From Candidatus Woesearchaeota archaeon (GTDB lineage: Archaea; Nanobdellota; Nanobdellia; Woesearchaeales; GCA-2686295): a stretch of 53,932 nucleotides of DNA. The DNA is taken from NCBI GenBank assembly GCA_016784125.1, contig JADHVI010000005.1, positions 1 through 53,932 of the forward strand, read 5' to 3'. Below the pieces are notes generated by a model that saw only the letters and a list, made by a program, of their open reading frames with translations, was not told the DNA's origin and did no database searches. The position numbers were made by a program, and so were the translations under genes. Each line of letters starts with the position of its first letter. The stretch's first letter is position 1. Positions 3 through 27,949 of the stretch are shown piece by piece.

Positions 3-3000
3 TCCAGTTTAACAGACGGAAACACATATTACTATAAATTAATGGCTTTAGACACATCAGGGAACCCGTCTGCTAACACTAGTGTAGCAGCAGGCACACC
101 AACCGATACTGAAGCTCCAAGCGTTGTAACAGGTTTAACAGTTGTTGATACTGCAGATACCGAAGATAGTCTAAATATTAGCTGGACAGCCAGCGGAAGC
201 GCCGATGTAGCAGGATATTTCCTACATAGAAACAATGTGCTCATAGCCAATATAACTGATGTTTCATACACAGATACAGCTGTAACAGATGGAACGCAAT
301 ATACTTACACAGTGTCAGCATATGATGAAGTACCAAACTATGCTGCGAATGTCTCACAAGCAGGAACTGCAGTAGATGATTTAGCACCAAAAGTTGTAGC
401 GATAGCTGGAAGTTCAGCTTCAAATCACTCTGTAAATATTACCTGGGCAAATGTAACTCAGAATTCAGATAATTCTGCTATACAAGACTTAACAGGATAC
501 TTAGTGTATATGAATATAACAGGAACCTGGACAGTTGTACAAAATACTAGTGCAGGAACTTTGATGTATTATAATGATACCTTGAATAATACGCAATTAT
601 ACCAGTTTAGAATAACTGCGTATGACGATGCAGGAAATTCAGGAACAGTTGTAAGCGTTGAATTAACACCTTCAGAAATGCCGACAATAACCTTGACTCC
701 GGGAAGTGGATCATTAATTAAATCAAGTGTTGCTGTAAATATATCAATAACATCTGGACAAAGTTTGGATACACTATGGTATAGAATATATAATTCAACA
801 GGTCAACAACTATCTGATAACCAAACAAACGGGTCAGTAGGAGTAAATGATTGGAATTACAGTATAGATGCAAGTGGATGGTTAGAAGATAATTTACATA
901 CAATTGCAGTTTATGCGAATGATACAAACGGACAATACATTCAGCAAAACTATACTTACGAAGTTGATGATACTATTCCAACAGTTACAACACCAACTGT
1001 TGATGATACTAACGATCCAGATGGAGTTAGCAAGAGCACGCAAGCAATTACTTATGACCTTCAAGTAACAGATGCAAATCAAGCTTATGGCTTGACAGTA
1101 ACTTTTGGAGTTGTAGGTACAGAAGTCAGCATGACAAATGTAACTGCGATAGTTTGGCGAGCATCAACAAACGCTTCAGCTCTAGGATGTAGCGAAGGAA
1201 GTTGTACAGTAACATACATCGCTACCGATGCAGCTGGAAATATCAATAACACTGCGAATTATACTTTTACAGTTGATGATACTAAACCAGCAGTTTCTGG
1301 CGCAATTATGACTGGAGGAATAATAAATCTTACAAACAACAAAGTAAGAGAGAATGATTCCATTACTGTAAATGTAACTGTGACAGATGCAAACAATATC
1401 TCCAGTGTGGAAGTTAATAATCAGACAATGACTAATTCAACAGCTACAGTCTATACTTATACAGGAAACGTCTCAGCACTTGGTTGTAGTTCAGATGGGG
1501 GTTGTACATTAACATTCGAAGCAATAGATATTGCAGGAAATCTAAATAGTTCAACAACTCTACAAATAACTGTAGATGATCTGGCACCATTAGTCAATGT
1601 TGTAACAATAGCAGATGATTATGTGCAGAACAACACAGCTGTTTTCATAACAGTTAATGTAACAGACAATCACACATCAATTTACAATGTGACTGCAGAA
1701 GGAACATCGTTAGTATTACAAGGAGATGGTTTATGGAATGGAACTATAAACTTACTTGACTTGGCAACAAATGCAGTAGATGTTGTAGTAACAGATATTG
1801 TTGGAAATGAACGAACAGATTCAACAACGACATATACCGTTGATGATGTAGCACCAAGCATAAATTCAATCACTTTAGCTGATGATTATGCTAATAACGG
1901 AACTGTTGTATTATTAACTGTTAATGTTACAGATGACGCTATTAACACAGTTATTGCAGAAGGATCGGCTTTAACAAGAAGTGGAGATCTTTGGACTGGA
2001 AATGTAACTTTATTATCTGCTGATTTGATTATAAACATAAGTGCTACAGATAATGCAAGTAATTCTGCAGTAAATAATAGTGTAACATATATTATTGATG
2101 ACGCTGCACCAGTAATTAACACTGTAACTTTAGCAGATGATTATGTAAGACCCACGCAAGTTGTTCTAGTTACTGTTAATATAACGGATGGCCAAACAGA
2201 ATCAGCTATCGCATGGGCTGGAGGGGCTAGTTATGCATTGACTAACACTTCTGGTGATATATGGGTTGGAAACGTGACAATGCCTTCAAGCAGTGGAAAT
2301 ATAACTGTTACGGCGGCAGATGCAGCAGAAAACAATGCTACACCACATCTGAGCACAACATTTGTTGTAGATAGTGTTAGACCAACATTTAGTATCTTAA
2401 CACCTGCTGCAGGCGGAGTTTACACTAATTCAACAGGAAGTATAGTGATAAGCTTCAATGTTTCAGATGCTAACACATCATTAGTCAATGTAACATTGGA
2501 TAATGGATCAAGACATAATGGAAGTACTGCAAATGGAACTCATACATGGTTATTTACTGGTTTAAGAGCAGGTAGACACAGCGTTTTATTCTCAGCCACA
2601 GACGAGGCTGGAAATGATGCTGTCTTGGTTACTAGAAGCTTCCAAATAGTTAGACCTCTAAATCTAACAGAAATTATTTCAAATATGACTGATGCTATTG
2701 GTGACTCAGTGCTTAACTTCACTGTTTTGTCAAATACTACCGATGTCAGTAATAATGAAACCTTGGATGCAAATACTACTTTGTCGATTGAAATGAACCT
2801 AAACATATCAGGTTTGAATGTAACTGCAACAATACCAAATTTCAACGGTTTGGATGCAAACTGGGAACAAACATTCACAATTGAGACTAATGAGAGTTCA
2901 ACAAGTGGAACTAGAGCTTCAACCAGAGCAGGTACAACCATAGAAACATTGTTGTTATTCGAAAACTTGGAAGATTTCTTGGGAGAAGATGAGTTTACAA

Positions 3001-4790
3001 TGGCCACAATCGTATTTCGAGAAGCACTAGGTGGAAGAGATGTACTATATTTGGCTGATGACGCAGGATCGGTGATTTACAAGTTAATTTCATGTACCAG
3101 TATACCAACAAGTGTTGCAACAGCAAGTGCGGCTTGTTATAATGTATCTGGAGGTAATGTAACTTTGTACTTACCACATTTCTCAGGAGGAGGACTGGCT
3201 AATGATACTGCAGCACCATTAATCAATATAACAGGTCCTGACAATGGAAGTACAGTAGGTAATAGTTATTTTCAAGTTAATTTTACTGTATACGAATCAA
3301 ACCCTGCAACTGCTTTTTGTAACATCACTTTAACAAGTGGTGCAACAACTCAAGGTACATATGGTATGACTGCTGCAGTGATGGATTCAACAGGAACAGC
3401 ATACGACGCTAATAGAACTTTCAGAGCTGTTGCTGATGGAGCATATAACTTATCAGTTTACTGTATAGATCAAAACAATAAGAATTCAACTGAAACATAT
3501 ACTGTGACTGTAGCTGATAATACTGAACCAACTGTAACTGAGTTTACTACGACCAACAGTGGATCAAGTACAGTAAGTATATTGCTGGAGATGAGAACAG
3601 ATGAAAAAGCGGTTTGTAAATACAGTACTTCTTCAAGCAATGCTTATGCTGCTATGAGTGCATTCAGTACAACTAACTCAACCTATCACTCAAAAACATT
3701 GAGTTACTCATCAGATACAGATGGAACTTACTATGTGCTATGTAATGATACGGCAGGAAATTTGATGTCTACAAAGAATACTACTGCTTTCGATGCAGAT
3801 GTTTCATCATCGCCCGGAAGTAGTGGGGATCCAGGTACTACTTCTACTGTCAGTACTTACACTAAAGCATGGTCGGAGATCCTGGCTGGAGAAACAAAAA
3901 CAGTTACAATTGATTCAGCAGTATATACGGGTGTTCCAATCACAGGACTTGAATTCATGGCTTTAAATGATTTGAATAGTCCTCAGTTGAAAGTAAGAGC
4001 TTTAACAAGTGCGTCATCAAGCACAGGAACAATTGAGTATACTTCGTATAAGTACTTGCAACTTGTAGAAACAAACTTTGACTCAGATGATTTAACTAAT
4101 ACAAAAATTGAGTTTAAAGTTCCAAAATCATGGATTGAAACAGCTGATATAACAAAAGGCAATGTGGCTTTGTTCAGATTCATTAATGAAACCTGGGTTG
4201 CACAAGAAACAACAATTACTTCTGAAGATGCAGATAATGTATATTATGAAGCAATAACGAGTGGTTTTAGCTATTTTGCAATTGGACAATTAGGTGAAGA
4301 AGTTATTCCTCCACCAGTGATTCCACCTGTAATTATTCCACCAATAACGAATGGAAACATTACGCCTCCTCCTACTGGAGCTGTAACTGGCGGATATGAT
4401 GGTTCTGGTGGGAATGACAGTGGAGAAGGTCAAGGAGATACTAGTAAGGGATCCGGTAAACGTGCATGGCTTTGGAGCTTAGTGATAATTATTGTAATTA
4501 TCATATTGTTGTTTGTGTTCTGGAAAGAAGGAAGGTTCCAGAAAATAATAGGAAGAGCTCATGAAAAAGGATTGCATAAGAAGGAACCTAAAGCTGAACA
4601 ACCAGCTGATGATAAAGCTGCGTTCGTTGATGACAAGCCACCTGTTGAAGACAATCCAAAGCTTGATGAGTTCATAAGAAACGAGATCGCACTTGGACAT
4701 ACAAAGTCTGAGATTAAATCTGCGTTGGAACATGTTGGTTGGTCAAAAGAACAGATTGCAGAAGGCTTCAGAGACTACAACAAGAAGTAA
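3..4790 (+). CDS. Large cell-surface glycoprotein (FN3/Ig-like repeats, PGF-pre-PGF domain, Pro-rich linker, C-terminal TM helix and cytoplasmic tail); 5'-truncated by the window edge
   Basis: Frame is open from base 3 (SSLTDGNTYYYKL-MALDTSGN, an FN3 strand pattern), so ATG 42 is internal. Repeated (V/I)DDxxP domain boundaries, abundant N-x-S/T sequons, YYEAITSGFSYFAIG PGF-pre-PGF-like motif, PPPVIPPV linker, hydrophobic WLWSLVIIIVIIILLFVFW helix. Confidence 0.85.
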   Translation, partial: SSLTDGNTYYYKLMALDTSGNPSANTSVAAGTPTDTEAPSVVTGLTVVDTADTEDSLNISWTASGSADVAGYFLHRNNVLIANITDVSYTDTAVTDGTQYTYTVSAYDEVPNYAANVSQAGTAVDDLAPKVVAIAGSSASNHSVNITWANVTQNSDNSAIQDLTGYLVYMNITGTWTVVQNTSAGTLMYYNDTLNNTQLYQFRITAYDDAGNSGTVVSVELTPSEMPTITLTPGSGSLIKSSVAVNISITSGQSLDTLWYRIYNSTGQQLSDNQTNGSVGVNDWNYSIDASGWLEDNLHTIAVYANDTNGQYIQQNYTYEVDDTIPTVTTPTVDDTNDPDGVSKSTQAITYDLQVTDANQAYGLTVTFGVVGTEVSMTNVTAIVWRASTNASALGCSEGSCTVTYIATDAAGNINNTANYTFTVDDTKPAVSGAIMTGGIINLTNNKVRENDSITVNVTVTDANNISSVEVNNQTMTNSTATVYTYTGNVSALGCSSDGGCTLTFEAIDIAGNLNSSTTLQITVDDLAPLVNVVTIADDYVQNNTAVFITVNVTDNHTSIYNVTAEGTSLVLQGDGLWNGTINLLDLATNAVDVVVTDIVGNERTDSTTTYTVDDVAPSINSITLADDYANNGTVVLLTVNVTDDAINTVIAEGSALTRSGDLWTGNVTLLSADLIINISATDNASNSAVNNSVTYIIDDAAPVINTVTLADDYVRPTQVVLVTVNITDGQTESAIAWAGGASYALTNTSGDIWVGNVTMPSSSGNITVTAADAAENNATPHLSTTFVVDSVRPTFSILTPAAGGVYTNSTGSIVISFNVSDANTSLVNVTLDNGSRHNGSTANGTHTWLFTGLRAGRHSVLFSATDEAGNDAVLVTRSFQIVRPLNLTEIISNMTDAIGDSVLNFTVLSNTTDVSNNETLDANTTLSIEMNLNISGLNVTATIPNFNGLDANWEQTFTIETNESSTSGTRASTRAGTTIETLLLFENLEDFLGEDEFTMATIVFREALGGRDVLYLADDAGSVIYKLISCTSIPTSVATASAACYNVSGGNVTLYLPHFSGGGLANDTAAPLINITGPDNGSTVGNSYFQVNFTVYESNPATAFCNITLTSGATTQGTYGMTAAVMDSTGTAYDANRTFRAVADGAYNLSVYCIDQNNKNSTETYTVTVADNTEPTVTEFTTTNSGSSTVSILLEMRTDEKAVCKYSTSSSNAYAAMSAFSTTNSTYHSKTLSYSSDTDGTYYVLCNDTAGNLMSTKNTTAFDADVSSSPGSSGDPGTTSTVSTYTKAWSEILAGETKTVTIDSAVYTGVPITGLEFMALNDLNSPQLKVRALTSASSSTGTIEYTSYKYLQLVETNFDSDDLTNTKIEFKVPKSWIETADITKGNVALFRFINETWVAQETTITSEDADNVYYEAITSGFSYFAIGQLGEEVIPPPVIPPVIIPPITNGNITPPPTGAVTGGYDGSGGNDSGEGQGDTSKGSGKRAWLWSLVIIIVIIILLFVFWKEGRFQKIIGRAHEKGLHKKEPKAEQPADDKAAFVDDKPPVEDNPKLDEFIRNEIALGHTKSEIKSALEHVGWSKEQIAEGFRDYNKK

Positions 4791-4806
4791 AAATTAATTT
4801 ATTTTT

Positions 4807-5073
4807 TTATTCATTTATTCTATTATTTCTATAATGACTAATTGTTTCTACAACACCCATTCCTATACCAATTCCTACACTTATAGTTATGTTTTTCATG
4901 AATAATCCATTAGAAATCATCTGTTTATATTGTGGGATGTATTGGGAAACGCGTGCGTTCTCAATAGCCTCAATTAATTCTGGTTTAGTGTAAATCGCAT
5001 CTAAAACTTCACCAGTTCCAAAAACTGCCAATCCTGTGGCGACTGCAACTAACACTATTTGTCCGAGTCCCAT
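4807..5073 (-). CDS. Small hypothetical membrane protein (two hydrophobic segments)
   Basis: 88-aa ORF with N- and C-terminal hydrophobic stretches; TATA-like TTTTTATAT about 22 nt upstream on the minus strand. Confidence 0.6.
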   Translation of the reverse strand: MGLGQIVLVAVATGLAVFGTGEVLDAIYTKPELIEAIENARVSQYIPQYKQMISNGLFMKNITISVGIGIGMGVVETISHYRNNRINE

Positions 5074-5131
5074 GATGGATAGAAATGATGCGAAATATAA
5101 AAATGTATACGCTTCTTAAAACCAAAAAATA

Positions 5132-5167
5132 TTTAAATAACCTCTTCTTCGTTGATTTAAAGTCAAC
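5132..5167 (+). promoter_or_regulatory. TATA box plus inverted repeat (candidate operator) upstream of the grpE-dnaK operon
   Basis: TTTAAATA at 5132-5139 followed by near-perfect palindrome GTTGATTT-A-AAGTCAAC at 5151-5167; SD GAGGTGA before grpE. Confidence 0.5.
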
Positions 5168-5208
5168 TAAACATAACTGATAATCAACAACTGTTATAGA
5201 GGTGAAAT

Positions 5209-5676
5209 ATGACGAAGAAAACTAAGACGGTCAAAAAGCAACCAAAACAAGATCTAAAAGCAGATATTACTGAATTAACTCTAACATTGCAAAGAGTGCA
5301 AGCTGAATTCGAGAACTATAAGAAAAGAACAGAAGCTGAATGCACTGAATTCAAGAAATATGCTGAAACAGATCTGATAAAATCATTTTTACCAGTGCTA
5401 GATAATTTTGAATTAGCACTACAAAACAAAAAAGCTCAAGATGAATTCGTAAAAGGAATGGAATTAATCTATTCACAACTATTTGAATCACTTGAACAGC
5501 GAGGGCTAAAAGTTATTAAGGCGGAAGGAGAAAAATTCGATCCTTACAAACATGAAGCTCTATTAACAGAGAAAAGCACCAAAGAACCAAACATGGTATT
5601 GCAAGAATTGCAAAAAGGATATATGGTGTGTGACAAAGTCATAAGACATACAAAAGTCAAGGTTAGTAAGAAATAA
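5209..5676 (+). CDS. grpE: Nucleotide exchange factor GrpE
   Basis: [32 protein letters not shown] motifs; directly upstream of dnaK. Confidence 0.97.
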
Positions 5677-7686: not shown

Positions 7687-9264
7687 ATGAAAATCAACAA
7701 ACTCACAATCAAGAATTATAAAAGTATACGAGACGTTGAAATACAAGACTTCAGAGATCTAAATGTATTCATAGGGAAAAACGATGCAGGAAAGTCCAAC
7801 ATTATAGGTGCAATAGACATACTATTTAATTCAAACCTGCAAAATTATAGTGGAACACTAAAACTAGTGGGTGAAGACCTTGTGGAAAGTATTTATGAAG
7901 GTCCATTAGAACACCAATTCTTCGACGAGAAAAAAAGCAAAGCAGAAATAACTGCATTTATAGACTTGACAAAACACGAATTAGAAACATATGGTATAAA
8001 TGATGCAGATACAGAACTTGTAATCTCCAAAACCATTACTAATGAAGGAAACAAAACGAGTGTAGGAATAAACTTTATCAGAATAGGGCGTGAAATAGTT
8101 GTGAAAACATCTGATGAAAAGAAACGATTTCAGTCAAAAAAAGGAAGTTATACAGAACAAATCTCAGATGGTTCAGCAAAAAAAATTCTAGAAGACCTAG
8201 AAAACCAATTCATACTTATACCTGCTGATAGAATTGTAATAAGAGATCCAGACATTAGATCAGAAAAAAACAGAGTCGAACAATACCTTAAAGAATCACT
8301 TATAAGACTTGCAAACAGCAAAGACAAAGACAGAAATCTTTTGTTCAAACAATTCACAGACTTCATAGGAGAAATATCTGCATTAATAGACTGCGTAGAA
8401 ACAGTTAAACAGAAACAAAAAATTGTTGATATAAAATTCAAAACATACGACGGTGCAGAAATACCATTATCCACTATAGGTGGAGGAAATAATGAACTCT
8501 TATTATTATTACATGACATGATTATTTCGGGGGGTTTAATCCTGGCAATAGAAGAGCCAGAAATACACCTACATCCTGAACCACAAAGAAAACTATACAC
8601 ATTCATGAAAGAATTCTCAAAAAGCACACAAATGTTTGTCGTAACACACTCACCAATATTTGTTCAGCCTGACAATATACGAGGGTTATTCAGAGTTGTA
8701 AAAGAATCATATGGAACAACAACATATGAAATGAACAAAGAAGAGTACATAGACCGTGATAGACTACAACAAGAGCTAAATTCAGAGAACTGCGAAATGT
8801 TCTTTGCAGACAAAGTATTGCTTGTTGAAGGCATATCTGACAAGATATTGATGGAAGGACTAATCAAAAAATACTGTAAATCGACAGACGAAATAAAAGT
8901 AGTGACGAGTTTTTCCAAAGATAATTTCGAAGTTTACGTACAATTGCTGAAAATATTCAAAATATCACATGTTGTAATGACTGACTTAGATTCACTAAAA
9001 GGCCGAATGCAAATAAAAGTAATTTGGCGAGAACTCAAAGGTAAAAGTTTCAAAAACCGGGATGAAAGGATAGAATTCTTAAAGAAGAAGAAAATCCATG
9101 TTTTATCAAAAGGCGATTTGGAAAGAAGTTATCCATCAAGATATAGGAGACATATATCAAAGCCACTTGATGCGCTATATGCAATACACAATCTCACAGA
9201 TGAGGAATATGAATCTAACAGGATGAAAGACTTGCGAGAAGTGATAGAAGCATTGGAGAGGTAA
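7687..9264 (+). CDS. OLD-family ATP-dependent nuclease (ABC ATPase + Toprim)
   Basis: Walker A GKNDAGKSN, signature-like STIGGG, Walker B/D-loop AIEEPEIHLHP, H-loop VTHSP, Toprim LLVEGISD and TDLD. Confidence 0.88.
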   Translation: MKINKLTIKNYKSIRDVEIQDFRDLNVFIGKNDAGKSNIIGAIDILFNSNLQNYSGTLKLVGEDLVESIYEGPLEHQFFDEKKSKAEITAFIDLTKHELETYGINDADTELVISKTITNEGNKTSVGINFIRIGREIVVKTSDEKKRFQSKKGSYTEQISDGSAKKILEDLENQFILIPADRIVIRDPDIRSEKNRVEQYLKESLIRLANSKDKDRNLLFKQFTDFIGEISALIDCVETVKQKQKIVDIKFKTYDGAEIPLSTIGGGNNELLLLLHDMIISGGLILAIEEPEIHLHPEPQRKLYTFMKEFSKSTQMFVVTHSPIFVQPDNIRGLFRVVKESYGTTTYEMNKEEYIDRDRLQQELNSENCEMFFADKVLLVEGISDKILMEGLIKKYCKSTDEIKVVTSFSKDNFEVYVQLLKIFKISHVVMTDLDSLKGRMQIKVIWRELKGKSFKNRDERIEFLKKKKIHVLSKGDLERSYPSRYRRHISKPLDALYAIHNLTDEEYESNRMKDLREVIEALER

Positions 9265-21380: not shown

Positions 21381-21647
21381 CTATGAATTTCCTCTTCCAG
21401 CTCTATTGAGTGCTTGTGCTTCTATTTCTGTTTCTCTAAGCATCAATATATCGCCGATTTGGACAGGTCCTTTTACGTTTCTTCTGATGGTTTTGTTTTT
21501 ATCTCTGCCATCAAGGATTTTACATCTGACCTGGATAGCTTCTCCTCTTGTTCCGGTTCTGCCAACTATTTCATCGACTCTGCCTGGAACTGCGGATGAA
21601 AAGTTCACCTGTCCTTTTGTTTCTGATTTTGTTTCTTTTTCAGCCAT
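21381..21647 (-). CDS. rps28e: 30S ribosomal protein eS28
   Basis: [37 protein letters not shown]; start placed at ATG 21647. Confidence 0.97.
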
Positions 21648-21655
21648 TTTCACAC

Positions 21656-21958
21656 CTATAATTGTTTAACGATGTCTTTTGCTTCTCCTTCTTGGATAAT
21701 AGCAATTGCGGCTGTTCCAACAGGTAGACCTGCTGCAGCACCTAATTGTTCTTTACTGTCTACATCCACGTATTTGATGCCTTTTTCTTTGCATAGCAAA
21801 GGTAAATGCATGATGATTTCTGGTGGTTGAACATCTTTTGCTGCTATTACTAATTTAGGAGTTCCTCTCTCGATTTCCTTTGTAACTTCGTTACATCCTT
21901 TCTTTATTTTGCCTGTTTTAGTGGCAAGTTCTACTGCTTCATATATTTTTTCCGACAT
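21656..21958 (-). CDS. rpl7ae: 50S ribosomal protein L7Ae (eL8, K-turn binding)
   Basis: [31 protein letters not shown]; ATG 21958 with SD GGAGG. Confidence 0.97.
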
Positions 21959-21986
21959 TTTGTTTTTCCTCCAGAAAAACAAAGCT

Positions 21987-22005
21987 CAAAAATCTTCGAT
22001 TTTTG
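21987..22005. repeat. CAAAAA-Nx-TTTTTG hairpin (copy 3) in the rpl7ae leader
   Basis: Perfect inverted repeat CAAAAATC-TTC-GATTTTTG, nested in a longer stem that pairs with the L7Ae SD. Confidence 0.6.
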
Positions 22006-22054
22006 TTGTTTTGCTTTTCTCAATATGTTTTCTAGGAGATACTTAAGAATTAAG

Positions 22055-22096
22055 CACCTCATTCAGCTCATTTCTGAGCGTCATTAATCACTGGTA
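22055..22096 (-). promoter_or_regulatory. Tandem kink-turn hairpin in the rpl7ae 5' UTR (putative L7Ae autoregulatory element)
   Basis: Minus strand UACC-AGU-GAUU-AAU-GAC-GCUCA-GAAA-UGAGC-UGA-AUGA-GGUG: two 3-nt bulges each followed by tandem G.A/A.G pairs; TATA TTTATAAA at 22118-22125. Confidence 0.7.
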
Positions 22097-22171
22097 TGTT
22101 TGTGGAAATCTGAACCGTTTATAAAGATTACGCTATATGTTTTTCACCAACCAGTAACAAAAACCGAAATA

Positions 22172-22199
22172 TTTATATACTGTAACTACCGTATAGTTA
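22172..22199 (+). promoter_or_regulatory. Archaeal TATA promoter with downstream inverted repeat for the orphan-PBP gene pair
   Basis: Purine-rich BRE-like CGAAA then TTTATATA (22172-22179) 24 nt before ATG 22204; TAACTA-N5-TAGTTA at 22183-22199. Confidence 0.6.
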
Positions 22200-22203
22200 T
22201 AAA

Positions 22204-23238
22204 ATGGTGGCTTTTATTTTTAATAAGAAGAAAAAGTTTCAAAGACAAGTAGAGAATATACTCGCTGATTATGTGTTTTTGACTCAAAAAGGGCCCGACA
22301 CATTCTCAGAATTAAATCAAAGTATAACAGAAGAGACGAGATCACATTTAGAAGCAGTAAAAATAAAGAGAATAAAAAGCCTTATAGACGGCATAAATTG
22401 GGCTGACTATCATCAACCACGAGAAATGACTACTTTTTTAGAAGATGCAGTTGCAAATTTCAGAACAAATGATTCAAATTCATACAAATCTATCGTCGGA
22501 ATGTTATCAATAACTGATAATCCTGTGGAAGTTTATCTATTAACAAAGAAACTTGAAAAAGGAGCATTACCTCATGACCGAACCCTAATGCAAACAAGAA
22601 GTTCAGAAGTTTCTTTCTACAATAGGTTAAGAGAAACATTATCAAAAAGCGGTGCAATATCAGACTTAATCAAAGAAAAAAAGATTTGTGCTCCTGATGA
22701 TCTTTCCTGGATGGAACTAGCACAACTCAATTACAATCAAATGTCTAACGATCAATCGTTTAAACACCTCAAAGACTACATAGGTAGAGAAAGAGGAATC
22801 ATATCAACGCAAGGGGGAGAGACTGCAGTAGGAATGCTGTATAAGAATCTATTCTGGGACAACGACCTTGACGGAGTATTCTTCCAATATATGCCTGAAT
22901 TGAGCCACCAATTCGATCAGGCAATGAAAAATGTTGTATTGGCTTCTTCTAATATTGAAGAAGCTGATGCAAATATTTTCCAAACATACAAATCATTTTT
23001 TCAAAGTATGTTAACTGTGGCAGAACAATCAATCACATATCAAGAAAATAACGCTGATAACATAGCAGAAATACCCTTCAGGCCTGGTTTAACTGAGGTT
23101 GCAAAGGCTGTTGGATTAGAAGATGAATTGAAACGAACATACACACCCCATATTATTCAATTAAAAAAACAAGGAGATGTAGAATTAGCAGAACAATTTG
23201 AATATGCACTTGGAATAAACATATCGCTAGTAGGTTAA
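22204..23238 (+). CDS. Hypothetical soluble, probably alpha-helical protein, likely co-transcribed with the PBP gene
   Basis: 344-aa ORF, leaderless start, 1-nt gap to the next ORF. Confidence 0.75.
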   Translation: MVAFIFNKKKKFQRQVENILADYVFLTQKGPDTFSELNQSITEETRSHLEAVKIKRIKSLIDGINWADYHQPREMTTFLEDAVANFRTNDSNSYKSIVGMLSITDNPVEVYLLTKKLEKGALPHDRTLMQTRSSEVSFYNRLRETLSKSGAISDLIKEKKICAPDDLSWMELAQLNYNQMSNDQSFKHLKDYIGRERGIISTQGGETAVGMLYKNLFWDNDLDGVFFQYMPELSHQFDQAMKNVVLASSNIEEADANIFQTYKSFFQSMLTVAEQSITYQENNADNIAEIPFRPGLTEVAKAVGLEDELKRTYTPHIIQLKKQGDVELAEQFEYALGINISLVG

Positions 23239-23239
23239 A

Positions 23240-25804
23240 ATGGAATTCATAAAAAAATCACTAATAACAATTGAGATTATCGCTGCTTTAGGTATGGGTG
23301 GTGCTGTAGCAACTTATAATTGGGGTGGTGATTTAATGCTTGCAGCAGATAAAGCAGGCAAATTCAAGAAAGAGGGATTTTTATGGAACCAAGTTGAAGC
23401 GAAAAATCAATTAGAATCAATTGTTACTAATGGAGGATCTGCAGGTAATGATAATCCTGAAAACGAAGGAAGATGGTTTCCAAGTATATTTGCACTAGAC
23501 AAACTTGCAGAACAAAATTCTGAAAGAAATATTGTTGCATATGATACTAAAGGAAGAGAAATTGGAACTGTAAGATCCAACCATAAATATCATTCATTAC
23601 AAGATTTTTCACCAATGCTCAGAAATGCAGTAATAACTTTTGAAGATCATAAATTCTTAGATCATAGTGGTGTCAGCCCAAAGTCCAAGCTCAGAGCTTT
23701 AATTAAAGACATTAAAGAACGTTCATGGGTAGAGGGTGGAAGCACAATGACAGAACAATTAGCAAAACAATTCTATACAGAAAATGGTGGTGGGGCTGTA
23801 AAGAAAGTATCTAGAAAAATAAAAGAATCACTGACTGCATTAGAACTTGAAGAACATTATTCCAAATCAGAGATATTTGAGATGTACATGAATATTTGTC
23901 CTTTTCCTAACGGAACTAGAGGATATGGAGATGCTGCACAAGATCTTTTTGGAAAGAACGCAAGCGATTTAACCTTGGCCGAAGCAACATACTTGTCAGT
24001 CATACCTAACCAACCTGGAGCCACACCTTATACAGAAAATGGAAGACAAGTTATACAAAGAAAACAGGAAATAGTGCTTAAAAAAATAAGAGATAAAGGT
24101 CAAATATCTCAAAGACAAGTAGATGATGCTATTAGAGAAACACAAGGTTTCAACATTACTAAGAAAACATATGTTGATACAGACTACGAAGATGTTCTTA
24201 ATTTTATTAACAGACAATTCATGGAAGTAACAGGCGAACATGGGTCACTTAATACAAACATGGATTTCTTGAATAATCAATCAGCAATTAGACAAATTGG
24301 AGGTTTTATTAGATTATACACAACTATAGATTTGGATATAGTTAATGATCTGAGAAGAAATGTTAATACTCAAAAAGGTTTTCGTGAAGGGGAACAATTT
24401 GGGTATATTGTTTTAGATGCAAAAGGAAAAATTAGAGGTGTCTACGAACAAGCAGGTATAGGAGATAAAAGCCCAATCGTTGTAGAACGGTATCAAACAG
24501 GTTCATCATTATTCAAACCATTCATATTTGCAACATCATTGGATGAAGAATTAATAACACCTTATACAAAAATAAACGACATGGGAGTGGCACCGGTTGT
24601 GTTTAGGAAAGGTAAGCCCGTAGGTGTTACATTCACAGATCCAGTAGGTGAACCATGGAGTGTTAGTAATGCTATACAAGGTAGCGATTTTCTTAAAACA
24701 CAGAATGCTATTATGTATCATCTTCCCAAATCAAATAATATTATTGCAGCTCACTTAATGATGTCTTTAAACAGCCCTGGTCGTCCATCACCAAGAATAA
24801 TTAAACAATTTTTAGATCATCAAGGCGTAGAAATCCTTGATTATAAAGATAAAGCAGTATCTTCAGTACTAGGAACATTTGTAGAATCTCCAGAAGAAGT
24901 AGCATATGGCTTCATGGTATTTAATGATGGAAATCTGATTAAAGATCCTACAGAACAAGCTTCATTAATTTTTAATAGAATTAACATTAATGGAACAGTC
25001 ACAGATTATGAAAATGATCAAATTGAAGTTGTTCAAATGCTCAAACCTGAAAACTTAAAATATTTGCAGGCTGCATTATGGTTACAACAAAGTAAATTCC
25101 AAACAAATGGACAACAAATATTTGATATGTGGGGAAAATCAGGAACAACACAAACAATCTATGATGGATCAAAGAAAAATATTGGTTGGAAGAATCTATC
25201 AGTTGCAAATGATGAATATGGAAGATTGGTTGTAACGGGATTTGCAAAGGGACATGGTAAGGGATCAAGAGATTCTGGTGGAGGAATGCATGATGGAATC
25301 ATGGGTGCTTGTGTAATATCCTGGGGAGAAACAGGAGATAGAGATTTATATGCTCGTACAGTTGCCGAAGTTAATCCTCAAAGTACAAAGGTTAGACAGT
25401 CTCAACTTGCAGCTCAAACTAAAGATGCCAAGCCTATAATTAAACAAGATTTAGATACAGTCATTAAGAATTATGAAAAATTAAATATGGCACTTGCATC
25501 TGAGACAAAGAAAGATTATGTTTTGTTTGGTGGAACCAAAGTTTCAATCAATAATGAATTCTATGGTATCCTCAGTCAAATATCCTTGAATTTAGCACCT
25601 GAAAGTAGAGATGATTATATTAATGCATTGAACCACTTGCATTCGGGAGTTTCAACAAAGAAGAGAATTTGGACTTATGATATTGGAGATGTACTAAAAG
25701 ATCTTTCTAAAGCAGAAACGACTCAAAGAGCAAATGGTTCGGATACAGCTGCAGACAGTATACAGATAGTTAGAAAATATTTTGCCGAGAATTTTGCTAA
25801 TTAA
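23240..25804 (+). CDS. Class A penicillin-binding-protein-like bifunctional transglycosylase (GT51)/transpeptidase
   Basis: N-terminal membrane anchor; GT51 motifs EDHKFLDHSG, GGSTMTEQLAK, RKIKE, KSEIFEMYMN, LAEATYLSVIPNQP; transpeptidase motifs SLFK (24506), SNN (24731), KSGT (25136); extra C-terminal helical region. Confidence 0.88.
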   Translation: MEFIKKSLITIEIIAALGMGGAVATYNWGGDLMLAADKAGKFKKEGFLWNQVEAKNQLESIVTNGGSAGNDNPENEGRWFPSIFALDKLAEQNSERNIVAYDTKGREIGTVRSNHKYHSLQDFSPMLRNAVITFEDHKFLDHSGVSPKSKLRALIKDIKERSWVEGGSTMTEQLAKQFYTENGGGAVKKVSRKIKESLTALELEEHYSKSEIFEMYMNICPFPNGTRGYGDAAQDLFGKNASDLTLAEATYLSVIPNQPGATPYTENGRQVIQRKQEIVLKKIRDKGQISQRQVDDAIRETQGFNITKKTYVDTDYEDVLNFINRQFMEVTGEHGSLNTNMDFLNNQSAIRQIGGFIRLYTTIDLDIVNDLRRNVNTQKGFREGEQFGYIVLDAKGKIRGVYEQAGIGDKSPIVVERYQTGSSLFKPFIFATSLDEELITPYTKINDMGVAPVVFRKGKPVGVTFTDPVGEPWSVSNAIQGSDFLKTQNAIMYHLPKSNNIIAAHLMMSLNSPGRPSPRIIKQFLDHQGVEILDYKDKAVSSVLGTFVESPEEVAYGFMVFNDGNLIKDPTEQASLIFNRININGTVTDYENDQIEVVQMLKPENLKYLQAALWLQQSKFQTNGQQIFDMWGKSGTTQTIYDGSKKNIGWKNLSVANDEYGRLVVTGFAKGHGKGSRDSGGGMHDGIMGACVISWGETGDRDLYARTVAEVNPQSTKVRQSQLAAQTKDAKPIIKQDLDTVIKNYEKLNMALASETKKDYVLFGGTKVSINNEFYGILSQISLNLAPESRDDYINALNHLHSGVSTKKRIWTYDIGDVLKDLSKAETTQRANGSDTAADSIQIVRKYFAENFAN

Positions 25805-26500
25805 TTATTCTCTATTAGCCCAGGTTATAGCATCATCTATATCTGCAGTAGTTAAATCTAGCCAATGCTTTCTTGTCTGAAAAATCTTAGCACCCTTAGC
25901 ATCCCATAGTAATAAACCAGAGTAAATTTTACTGGGTTCAATGATTATTTCTGGTGGTGTAAAATAAGATGAATAAAGATTTTCTTTAATCATATCTTTG
26001 TTTAATTCATCTAAGTTTATCTTGCCAAGCATTGCTTTTCTCGCGAGAAGGTTAATAACTCCTAAAACTTCTTCCTGACCATCATATTTAACGCAGAAAT
26101 TTAAGAACAGATTATCATATTCAGCAGTATCTTCCATGAGCTTTTTGAAACTTGAAGTTAAACGTTGCTCCATGTCAAACCATCTGCCAATAACAAAAAT
26201 TCTTACTTTATGTTTTTGAATGCTTTCGTTGGTTTCTAATTCTTTAAAGAACTTAACCAACTCTACTATTTCATCTTCTGTTTCAGCAGAAATATTTAAC
26301 GTTATTATTGGAATGTCACTTTTTATTTGATAATTGACAAACCTTGTAAGTTGCTCAACATTCCTAATGGCTGCATCTTTTTCTTCCTTGCCATTTTTCT
26401 TAGTCCATCCTATTAGATTGCTTCCATCAATAGCTACGTGCAAAGGTCTTTTCTTTTGTTTCAAGAAATCCAAATCAATCTTTGGGAGCTTTAATGCCAT
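25805..26500 (-). CDS. Degenerate cis-prenyltransferase (UppS-like) homologue
   Basis: PLHVAI, KVRIFVIG, LNFCVKYDGQEE, NLYS...PPEIII, SGLLLWD match the UppS scaffold, but DGNRR and the RTSGExR arginines are absent. Confidence 0.75.
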   Translation of the reverse strand: MALKLPKIDLDFLKQKKRPLHVAIDGSNLIGWTKKNGKEEKDAAIRNVEQLTRFVNYQIKSDIPIITLNISAETEDEIVELVKFFKELETNESIQKHKVRIFVIGRWFDMEQRLTSSFKKLMEDTAEYDNLFLNFCVKYDGQEEVLGVINLLARKAMLGKINLDELNKDMIKENLYSSYFTPPEIIIEPSKIYSGLLLWDAKGAKIFQTRKHWLDLTTADIDDAITWANRE

Positions 26501-26547
26501 ACAATAGTAGGATTGGGAATGCTATTTAAAGATTGCGCTAGAAATGA

Positions 26548-27294
26548 TTAGAAGTGATAAGTAACATTTATGCCTTTTCGAAAGAGATGATCAATCATTA
26601 TTTCAAGATCTTGCATTCTAATGGCTGCCTTTTTTGAAGCCATCATTGTACTGTGAAGCCTAGCCCTATTTTCTCCATGATGATACTCAGACAGATCCAA
26701 TGGATTAAATTGGACAAAACCCCTTGATGTGGCAATATAACTACAATCATAATCCAGTCCGTGCTTTAGTATAACTGATTCATTATAGTCATGTAATAAT
26801 AAATGTTTTGTGCTGGGTGCTGCAAGAACCCTAAAGAAAATATCTCGTTCGTGAGGATTGGCAGGAATAGAATTAAGTATTGGATAAATTTCTGTATCAG
26901 GTATGAGAAAGTAGCTTGAGACATTAATGTTCATAGGTGCGCCTAGCATTTCATGTTCAAATTTGTAATATTTAATTGTTTCCAAAACATCTGCTGGGAT
27001 TGCAACACCAAATGATTCACCATTATCATGATAATCAAGTTTTATCCACACATCCAATTCATCAAGTGGATAATTAAATAGCATCCATGCCATTCTATGA
27101 TCTGCATGCTTTGCAAGCTCTAATAATGCTAATTCCCCCTTATCTCTTGTAATATAGGGCGAATTATTAGGGGCTAACATCGGACTTTCAAATGGAGGAA
27201 TACTCTCTTTTCCAGAAGCACAACTAACCAACCATGGAAAGGTGGCTAAAGCACCCAAGCCAATTATTCCCTTGACAATATCCCTTCTTTTCAT
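26548..27294 (-). CDS. Hypothetical Tat-type lipoprotein
   Basis: MKRRDIVKG twin-arginine-like start, hydrophobic core, lipobox-like LVS-C. Confidence 0.6.
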   Translation of the reverse strand: MKRRDIVKGIIGLGALATFPWLVSCASGKESIPPFESPMLAPNNSPYITRDKGELALLELAKHADHRMAWMLFNYPLDELDVWIKLDYHDNGESFGVAIPADVLETIKYYKFEHEMLGAPMNINVSSYFLIPDTEIYPILNSIPANPHERDIFFRVLAAPSTKHLLLHDYNESVILKHGLDYDCSYIATSRGFVQFNPLDLSEYHHGENRARLHSTMMASKKAAIRMQDLEIMIDHLFRKGINVTYHF

Positions 27295-27364
27295 TCTGCT
27301 CGGAATAAAGAATTATATATAAATCTGACTAAGATTTATAAAAACAACAGCACTCCTGGCCTGG

Positions 27365-27949
27365 ATGGGCGAATATTTAACATCATTAGAACAACAAGTT
27401 AGAAATGGCATGATGAGAAATCAAGTACTGCCAAATAATCAAGATGGGAATGTTTATTTGAGGCAACTTCTTGGAGACATGCATCACATTAATCTTAATT
27501 TTTCTTCAACAGAGATTGCTAAACGCATAGGAATGTCTAATGAAGGATATGCATATTTCAAAAAGGAATTCTTGACGAGCAATGTAAAAAAGGGAAATAA
27601 TTTTGGTCTTCCTAGCAAAACAGTGGGAATTGAAGACCCTGATTCAATAGTGATTGGAAAACAAGTTACATCTATAGAATATGAATTTGTTGGATATGAG
27701 GTTGTATCCTTGGGCGAGATTCAAACTCGTGTATTAGTCATGAGCCAAGTAGAGTTTGCTGATCAAGGTAATGGACTGTATGGTTTCATACAGAAAAATA
27801 TCATATTTAGGATGGAAAATATGCTTCCTCAGATTTTAACTCCTATTGGTTTAAATCAATTCAAACATTTTGCAATTGATGGTGTTAGAGCTTTTTTAGA
27901 CCAGGCAATTTATCTTTGTATGCGTCAAGCAAATCCAGAAATGGAATAA
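27365..27949 (+). CDS. Hypothetical protein
   Basis: 194-aa ORF, TTTATAAA about 22 nt upstream. Confidence 0.65.
   Translation: MGEYLTSLEQQVRNGMMRNQVLPNNQDGNVYLRQLLGDMHHINLNFSSTEIAKRIGMSNEGYAYFKKEFLTSNVKKGNNFGLPSKTVGIEDPDSIVIGKQVTSIEYEFVGYEVVSLGEIQTRVLVMSQVEFADQGNGLYGFIQKNIIFRMENMLPQILTPIGLNQFKHFAIDGVRAFLDQAIYLCMRQANPEME

Follow-up and report, generated by a model that had tools for sequence, protein, structure and literature searches.

The contig JADHVI010000005.1 of a Candidatus Woesearchaeota archaeon (assembly GCA_016784125.1), which was analysed over its whole length of 53,932 nucleotides (nt) and is referred to here as the window, carries an intact gene for a protein of 854 amino acids (aa) of the class A penicillin-binding protein (aPBP) type, i.e. 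a predicted bifunctional peptidoglycan synthase with a GT51 glycosyltransferase domain and a penicillin-binding transpeptidase domain. The gene is inherited within an archaeal genus in which the canonical pathway to lipid II was not found. GT51 enzymes and penicillin-binding proteins (PBPs) are treated as hallmarks of bacteria. The window is contig C22 of an assembly of 32 contigs and 0.95 Mb (genome G000), which is 83.6% complete with an estimated contamination of 0.56%. Our tentative explanation is that the enzyme acts on the wall or the wall precursors of a bacterial partner. The protein is laid out as follows.

23240..25804, + strand: whole gene of the class-A-PBP-type protein, 854 aa (domains, motifs, predicted structure)
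23258..23314, + strand: N-terminal hydrophobic anchor, residues 7-25, with KK just before it (Kyte-Doolittle, predicted structure)
23555..24085, + strand: GT51 peptidoglycan glycosyltransferase domain, residues 106-282 (Pfam, invariant residues, predicted local distance difference test (pLDDT) 89-98)
23642-23644 and 23825-23827, + strand: codons of the catalytic Glu residues E135 and E196 (motif reading)
24437..25249, + strand: divergent penicillin-binding transpeptidase domain, residues ~400-670 (Pfam, TIGR02074, PDB 5u2g, hhalign, kept motifs)
24506-24517, 24731-24739 and 25136-25147, + strand: SxxK, SNN and KSGT motifs, also in the orthologues
25451..25795, + strand: C-terminal helical extension, residues 738-852, without a family match (predicted structure, alignments)

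Pfam Transgly (GT51) matched residues 106-282 with 161.7 bits against a cut-off of 27, and all eight members tested of the phylogenetic clade described below matched this family. Pfam Transpeptidase was matched with 24.0 bits against a cut-off of 22.1, the single stretches each scoring below the cut-off, and in four of the same eight proteins. NCBIfam PBP_1a (TIGR02074) aligned with residues 116-642 at 208.7 bits, far under its cut-off of 508.75; the trusted cut-offs of PBP_1a, PBP_1b and PBP_1c were not reached, and all 13 NCBIfam matches lay below their own cut-offs. A profile of five orthologues matched the GT51 domains of solved aPBPs (Aquifex PBP1a glycosyltransferase domain, E 9e-44), and its alignments to PBP2 and PBP1b chains extended into the transpeptidase domain. 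Searched alone as a single sequence with phmmer against the PDB, the transpeptidase part returned no PBP and only chance-level matches. A profile of four sequences of this part matched PBP1A 5u2g (E 1.6e-4), aligned through SxxK and SxN, and also gave spurious armadillo-repeat designs. Finally, hhalign of a transpeptidase-region profile against 16 bacterial aPBPs gave a probability of 99.6% and an E of 8.9e-24 over 227 columns, covering SxxK, SxN and KTG of the bacterial proteins. These profile comparisons indicate that the transpeptidase half is homologous to bacterial PBPs yet very divergent. The original prediction, an earlier reading of the same DNA, had called the protein an apparently intact class A PBP and had proposed a profile search as a check; the Transgly part of this check came out strongly and Transpeptidase scored above its cut-off, but the transpeptidase half is far from its bacterial relatives and the PBP_1a cut-off was missed.

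The active-site residues are conserved. The stretch EDHKFLDHSG begins at E135 (nt 23642), and SLFK (S423-K426), SNN (498-500) and KSGT (633-636) follow in the order found in PBPs; together with the N-terminal anchor, these elements lie where the original prediction had placed them. The Glu of GT51 motif 1 (EDxxF), the Glu of motif 3 (RKxxE) and the GxSTxTxQ motif are all present. Among 76 aligned aPBPs, E135, D136, Q173, K193 and G228 are invariant, and E196, S422, K426, S498, N500, K633, G635 and T636 are at least 90% conserved; among 20 sequences of the clade, E135, D136, G166, S168, Q173, K193 and E196 are invariant. Hydropathy (Kyte-Doolittle) has its maximum of 1.68 at residue 7, with no other strongly hydrophobic window, and each orthologue likewise has a single N-terminal hydrophobic stretch. 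The AlphaFold2 model built on the 76-row alignment has a mean pLDDT of 85.9 and a predicted template modelling score (pTM) of 0.82; it shows one long N-terminal helix (residues 2-38), GT51 and transpeptidase parts that are well modelled, a low-confidence or disordered linker (713-758) and then helices across 738-852, in line with the extra C-terminal helical region noticed earlier. This extension is common to the orthologues of genomes G005 and G007 and to the Nanoarchaeota protein P0124, is absent from the proteins P0125 and P0126, and gave nothing at 0.9 or above in a comparison with the Atlas. By domain identity and motif conservation, we conclude that the protein is of the bifunctional class A PBP type, with predicted activity.

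The solved examples matched are 2oqo (Aquifex PBP1a glycosyltransferase domain), 2olu and 3dwk (PBP2), 5fgz and 3vma (PBP1b) and 5u2g (PBP1A). The window protein shares with these bacterial proteins the N-terminal anchor, the five motifs and both Glu residues of the GT51 domain, the linker and, in order, SxxK, SxN and K(S/T)G of the transpeptidase domain. Unlike them, it is encoded in an archaeal genome without the lipid II pathway, its transpeptidase half is very divergent, with a score far below the NCBIfam PBP_1a cut-off, its C-terminus is extended by ~115 helical residues that follow a disordered linker, and it falls in a separate clade (100/99).

Orthologues were found in three of eight congeners by whole-genome searches, in G005 (37% identity), G003 (38%) and G007 (32%). 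The G005 and G007 genes are full-length, and that of G003 is cut by a contig end with its frame open up to there. Each lies between an L7Ae gene and a UPPS-family gene, the same borders as in the window:

21656..21982, - strand: ribosomal protein L7Ae gene, left border of the variable slot (family match, synteny)
25805..26500, - strand: cis-prenyltransferase (UPPS family) gene, right border of the slot, convergent to the PBP gene and abutting its stop (Prenyltransf 79.7 bits, synteny)

The L7Ae and UPPS genes are adjacent in G001, G006 and G008, where the slot is empty, and in G002 two unrelated genes stand in place of the PBP gene, namely a 297-aa open reading frame (ORF) and a 277-aa ORF with a hydrophobic N-terminus (3446-5222 of the locus). 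The position of the slot is therefore fixed, and the PBP gene in it is accessory and variable; the archaeal orthologues in conserved synteny that had been named as a check on the original prediction do exist.

The border proteins and nearby conserved proteins are 63-88% identical between species, versus ~30-38% for the PBP. By region, identity is 38-44% in GT51, 30-37% in the transpeptidase part and 24-34% in the C-terminus. Nonetheless, E135, D136, H142, G144, G166, S168, Q173, R192, K193, E196, S422, S423, K426, S498, N499 and N500 are invariant in the orthologues, and K(S/T)GT is kept. An SLT-domain surface protein of the genus is equally diverged (38-40% identity); since this protein changes as fast and the catalytic residues of the PBP are invariant, the pace of the PBP looks typical of exposed proteins rather than of decay. 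A near-length protein search returned a variant 87% identical from another sample and a fragment of the window's own protein; beyond those, nothing was closer than 32% identity over ~41% of the length. Profile searches of genome contigs gave the three congeners and four distant bacterial PBPs, those of metagenome contigs gave one orthologue, on the same contig as that of G005, and 79 distant PBP loci, and those of viral contigs gave one weak GT51 match and no sign of carriage by viruses.

The locus is archaeal and contiguous. Archaeal genes on the contig include L7Ae, S28e, aEF-2, RpoA', a split RpoB, ELP3 and an A24 prepilin peptidase, and the GC content across the locus is even (0.33-0.35). 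The 5.1-kb stretch 21500-26600 is fully present in runs of three marine or estuarine metagenome studies, and single contigs of 14.3, 15.4 and 22.5 kb from the three studies span L7Ae, the orphan ORF in front of the PBP gene, the PBP gene and UPPS with 0-2 differences and no joints. The 15.4-kb contig begins at 21525, and at most one of the three can be the source of the assembly; a chimera is therefore very unlikely. The records of the orthologues also carry archaeal labels (Nanobdellati archaeon, Nanoarchaeota archaeon, Candidatus Woesearchaeota archaeon). The earlier argument against contamination, which rested on an archaeal TATA box and flanking archaeal ribosomal genes, is thus borne out by the flanks, the even GC content, the contigs of three studies and the synteny in congeners.

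An exhaustive profile search gave 40,909 matches, with scores dropping steeply from the orthologues to a small next set that includes proteins named PBP or transglycosylase by NCBI from Nanoarchaeota, Woesearchaeota, Fibrobacterota and Chitinivibrionia metagenome-assembled genomes (MAGs). Trees were built with FastTree from 203 GT51 domains and with IQ-TREE (LG+C20 PMSF) from 40 full-length rows, the latter picked after the 203-row tree had been seen. The window protein lies in a clade of 19 rows that is split from all other rows at 100/99 support. Inside it, six archaeal rows group together (86/89), a 10-row clade containing Fibrobacterota and Chitinivibrionia (100/100) joins a partial Woesearchaeota protein at 84/80, and P0125 and P0126 branch deeper. 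Holding the seven archaeal-labelled rows together was not rejected (approximately unbiased test, p-AU 0.225). In these trees the protein is not nested within a named bacterial clade, the outcome that had been named as a possible refutation.

Across the order, GT51 is present in 30 of 401 sampled genomes (~7%; 28 over the cut-off) and in 23 of 257 genera, including some single-contig genomes; in a phylum-wide sample it is present in 21 of 401. In the tree, the order's remaining GT51 genes are scattered over several positions among the bacterial rows, a pattern that indicates repeated uptake. SLT domains occur in 220 of the 401 genomes of the order, a tally that includes the unpublished G281 and G218. 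They are present in 24 of the 30 GT51-positive genomes versus 196 of the 371 others (Fisher p 0.004, with kin not independent), a co-occurrence that is no more than suggestive.

The lipid II pathway was searched in the four PBP-bearing genomes of the genus (G000, G003, G005 and G007). None of the four has a match to MraY/GT4, to the MurG C-domain, to FtsW/RodA or to Bac_transf. Each has one Mur_ligase_M match, classed as FolC by TIGR01499 in G000 (359 bits) and G007 (394 bits), and matches to the MurJ family are weak or non-specific. YkuD L,D-transpeptidases were found in none of five genomes. In G000 itself there is no match to PF00953, PF04101, PF01098, PF03023, PF07478, PF00275 or PF02873; GT51 is the sole member of the pathway found, and the sole Mur_ligase_M gene, that for FolC, lies on another contig. 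The original prediction had stated that no mur genes are in the window; apart from this FolC-type ligase, none are in the whole G000 assembly either, and its proposed genome search finds the canonical pathway missing from the genus, with MraY, MurG, SEDS and Mur ligases other than FolC not found. By contrast with these synthetic genes, an SLT-domain protein is present in all five genus genomes tested. That of G000 is an 807-aa protein with an N-terminal anchor (on G000:C29, at 1370-3790 of its locus, - strand), with full-length orthologues in G007 and G003.

Because the genus lacks MraY, MurG, SEDS and Mur ligases, we favour action on the murein or lipid II of a bacterial partner: an intact aPBP-type enzyme, predicted to be active and outward-facing, may act on the murein precursors or the wall of this partner together with the SLT protein, an explanation to which we give somewhat less than an even chance. 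Catalytic activity, outward topology, an exogenous substrate and the bacterial partner are all inferred. Kept as an accessory surface gene in a marine DPANN genus of the Woesearchaeota type, the gene would encode a protein anchored in the membrane by its N-terminus, with a GT51 polymerase, an acyl-serine DD-transpeptidase and a lineage-specific C-terminal helical domain. Murein building blocks would be supplied by the bacterial partner at the cell-cell contact; the GT51 domain would bind lipid II or nascent glycan of the partner or extend it, and cross-linking of D-Ala-D-Ala stems would proceed through an acyl-enzyme formed by the transpeptidase domain. With the SLT lytic transglycosylase of the genus, the enzyme could open, re-knit or tether to the partner wall. 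Bacterial partners or prey have been proposed for Woese- and Pacearchaeota from their lytic transglycosylases (PMC8204110; PMC9723730), and the parts of a further report that deal with such enzymes in these archaea infer bacterial partners or prey as well (PMC12352652).

Several observations weigh against a bacterial partner as the source of the substrate. Lipid II, the substrate of GT51 enzymes, sits in the same membrane as the enzyme, and we know of no precedent for GT51 action across two cells. No bacterial partner was identified, and cultured DPANN are described, in the passages of a review that concern them, as epibionts of archaea (PMC7613921). As G000 is incomplete, its absences are provisional. 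Moreover, MurA and MurB genes are adjacent in all three PBP-bearing congeners (G007:C14:12000-28000; G003:C36; G005:C31). In G007 they score 489 bits (TIGR01072) and 198 bits (TIGR00179), both above the NCBIfam equivalog cut-offs, and their cluster holds a class IV aminotransferase, a TylF-like methyltransferase, a GT2-radical SAM/SPASM fusion, a GT2 gene and an SGNH/AlgX-like gene. These pairs suggest UDP-MurNAc synthesis in archaea without MraY and MurG. MurB is present in nine of the 401 genomes of the order, and GT51 occurs in five of these nine versus 25 of the 392 others (Fisher p 2e-4, with kin not independent). In favour of a partner, 25 of the 30 GT51-positive genomes are without a MurB match. 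Finally, G221, from another family of the order, has a near-complete murein (dcw-like) cluster including GT51 on one 48-kb archaeal contig (G221:C2:4000-23999). The cluster comprises MurA, MurB, MurG (GT28 N and C domains), MraY with the MraY signature and two Mur ligases, one of them carrying a Peptidase_M23 fusion; it also encodes a 284-aa monofunctional GT51, a FemAB/GNAT-like protein, a DUF4015 hydrolase and a MOP flippase-like protein. Genes for a YGR210-type GTPase and a DIE2/ALG10 GT-C protein border it. Further genes of this contig share 35-69% identity with genes of G000, and the GC content along it is uniform. G018, a congener of G221, has MurB and GT51; neither G221 nor G018 has an SLT match. 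Together, the MurA/MurB pairs of the congeners and the G221 cluster weaken the premise that the group cannot make murein-type precursors.

For the same two reasons, a live rival is an endogenous surface polymer with MurNAc, which the enzyme would polymerise and cross-link; MurA and MurB of the lineage itself would supply UDP-MurNAc, and non-canonical enzymes would carry out the assembly on a polyprenyl carrier. We regard this main rival as somewhat unlikely. The position of the G007 pair in a glycan cluster with two GT2 genes is consistent with it, as is a Ddl-like ATP-grasp gene of G007, which with 221 bits misses its cut-off of 243 and neighbours a PMT_2 GT-C gene. Within the genus, MurB is present in three of four PBP-positive genomes versus one of four PBP-negative genomes tested (G008, the others being G001, G002 and G006; G004 was left out of this count), and the G221 gene set lies on a single archaeal contig. 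Moreover, the UPPS-family gene abuts the PBP gene; yet this neighbour is a conserved core gene that is in place with or without the PBP gene. Against an endogenous polymer, MurA, MurB and the Ddl-like gene were not found in the incomplete G000 assembly, MurB likewise occurs in G008 and G009, which have no PBP gene, and MraY, MurG, SEDS, Bac_transf and a non-FolC Mur ligase were not found in the four PBP-bearing genomes. With these absences, neither a lipid-PP-disaccharide nor a D-Ala-D-Ala stem on which the transpeptidase domain could act can be reached by a known route.

A bolder form of either explanation is true murein chemistry in Archaea: members of the order could build a murein-like layer, as the G221/G018 cluster suggests, or the window's genus could use its aPBP to polymerise the lipid II of a bacterial partner into a shared wall or its own. 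We consider this unlikely; if true, it would amount to a covalent 'weld' between archaeon and bacterium.

Another explanation, which we hold to be quite unlikely, is that the fold has been kept for a murein-binding adhesin or a hydrolase (DD-carboxypeptidase or endopeptidase) acting on the wall of a partner or prey without net synthesis. It would account for the very divergent transpeptidase half (Pfam 24 bits, and no PDB PBP by single sequence), the extra C-terminal domain without an assigned role and the fast evolution seen in other surface proteins, and it would suit an order rich in lytic SLT proteins. But among orthologues that are only 31-38% identical, neither of the catalytic Glu residues nor any other GT51 motif residue varies, which would not be expected if only binding or peptidase activity were selected.

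It is very unlikely that the gene, once transferred from bacteria, now has no function and is drifting neutrally or decaying: its patchy presence, with the slot empty or otherwise filled in four congeners (G001, G006 and G008; G002), and the low identity among orthologues would fit such a leftover, but the frames are open and full-length in G000, G005 and G007 and open to the contig end in G003, the catalytic motifs are conserved, an 87%-identical variant occurs in another sample, the predicted model was counted as confident along the whole chain, and the divergence equals that of the SLT surface protein. A chimera or bacterial contamination, suggested by a bacterial-type gene inside a MAG, is scarcely credible given the contigs of three studies across the locus, the even GC content, the synteny repeated in three other species and the low estimated contamination.

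Activity on a partner's wall would mean that some DPANN archaea work on their bacterial partners' wall precursors, and would give direct molecular evidence of cross-domain symbiosis or predation; activity on an endogenous substrate would mean that murein-type polymers occur outside Bacteria too. In Nanoarchaeota and Woesearchaeota MAGs, relatives already carry the name 'penicillin-binding protein' from NCBI automatic annotation. The present analysis finds an intact aPBP inherited within an archaeal genus, GT51 genes in ~7% of the genomes sampled from its order, and a genus that has the greater part of the murein pathway. Our literature search, which extended to papers but not to supplementary tables, found no paper discussing GT51 or aPBPs in DPANN. 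In the passages of a 2012 survey that bear on archaea, the minimal GT28/GT51/GH set was present in none of 101, and GT51 is not among the partial hits named there (PMC3541169).

A close archaeal parallel is the large extracellular SLT/GH23 'murein-like lytic transglycosylase' of Woesearchaeota and Pacearchaeota, which in these accounts is likewise bacterial-type, murein-directed and surface-exposed (PMC8204110; PMC9723730); it differs in being lytic (GH23) and not synthetic (GT51 and transpeptidase). In the parts of the two accounts that treat these enzymes, GT51 and PBPs go unmentioned. Pseudomurein of Methanobacteriales and Methanopyrales is an archaeal wall polymer made with relatives of Mur ligases and MraY, according to the sections of two reports that treat its synthesis (PMC10117817, PMC11915815); the window protein, by contrast, is a true GT51/PBP and its organism a DPANN archaeon. 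The G221 cluster is likewise from a DPANN genome of this order and includes GT51, but its GT51 gene is monofunctional, belongs to another GT51 branch and stands next to MurA, MurB, MurG, MraY and Mur ligases, of which the window's genus is without MurG, MraY and the Mur ligases. A functional analogy to the explanation favoured here is offered by Bdellovibrio-like predatory bacteria, in which wall-modifying PBP-type or transpeptidase enzymes remodel the murein of the prey. These predator enzymes are bacterial, are secreted into the prey periplasm and are mostly peptidases or L,D-transpeptidases, not GT51 synthases.

In the window, the PBP gene is preceded by an ORF without a family, here called the orphan:

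22172..22179, + strand: TATA-box-like TTTATATA, ~25 nt ahead of the orphan ATG (sequence reading, alignment of four intergenic regions)
22204..23238, + strand: orphan ORF, 344 aa, species-specific, first gene downstream of the promoter (ORF call, no family)

The orphan stop and the PBP ATG are 1 nt apart on the same strand, and the two ORFs agree with the two-gene unit described earlier, as the TATA-box-like element does with the archaeal promoter then proposed. The region upstream of the orphan aligns with the regions upstream of the PBP genes of the three congeners in the TTTATATA box and in the bases just before the start codon, giving a promoter block conserved across four species, AAAAACCGAAATATTTATATA ... 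TAGT.GTAAAA. The orphan therefore sits between a conserved PBP promoter and the PBP gene, and the two are probably co-transcribed in G000, an inference from this arrangement. The orphan had also been put forward as a partner of the PBP. This idea found no support: neither Pfam nor NCBIfam has a family that matches the orphan, the 60 relatives searched contain no homologue, and all three orthologous PBP loci are without it. Among 5.8 billion proteins, only the orphan itself was found at near-length, a search that left out longer and shorter forms. Its Atlas model has a pLDDT of 0.48, no feature hits, and structure matches that are all at a template modelling (TM) score of 0.32 or less.

Among the sources containing the locus there was no transcriptome dataset. 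Run X14 bears the label metatranscriptomic and the flag 'probably DNA'. Its contigs of 151-309 nt match without a difference within the orphan, across the orphan/PBP junction (23194-23502), towards the 3' end of the PBP gene and in the UPPS gene; they were not counted as expression.

Upstream of the L7Ae gene, between it and the PBP promoter (22036-22096, minus strand), a non-coding block is conserved in four species. Within it, GUGAUUAAUGA and GAAUGAG boxes border a 5-bp helix, three pairs of which have changed on both sides in a compensating manner. Rfam gave only a chance-level match for this intergenic block (mir-249, 16.6 bits, E 0.51). The block is presumably akin to a kink-turn or C/D-type element, and L7Ae could be its ligand in the leader of the L7Ae gene.

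On the other side of the locus, between the UPPS and A24 peptidase genes (26548-27949), lie two genes without a family match, encoding a 248-aa protein with a signal- or lipobox-like N-terminus and a 194-aa protein. The two borders, UPPS and A24 peptidase, adjoin each other in G006 and G008, and G007 has a 196-aa ORF there that by eye looks related; this stretch may be a second variable slot. Elsewhere in the window, positions 7687-9264 (+ strand) encode an OLD-family-like protein with an AAA_15/AAA_21 ATPase and an OLD-like TOPRIM domain; OLD-family-like proteins are often linked to defence systems. Finally, the 1582-aa ORF at 42-4790 (+ strand) has only weak matches to bacterial Ig-like domains (Big_13, Big_7) and probably encodes a large surface protein.

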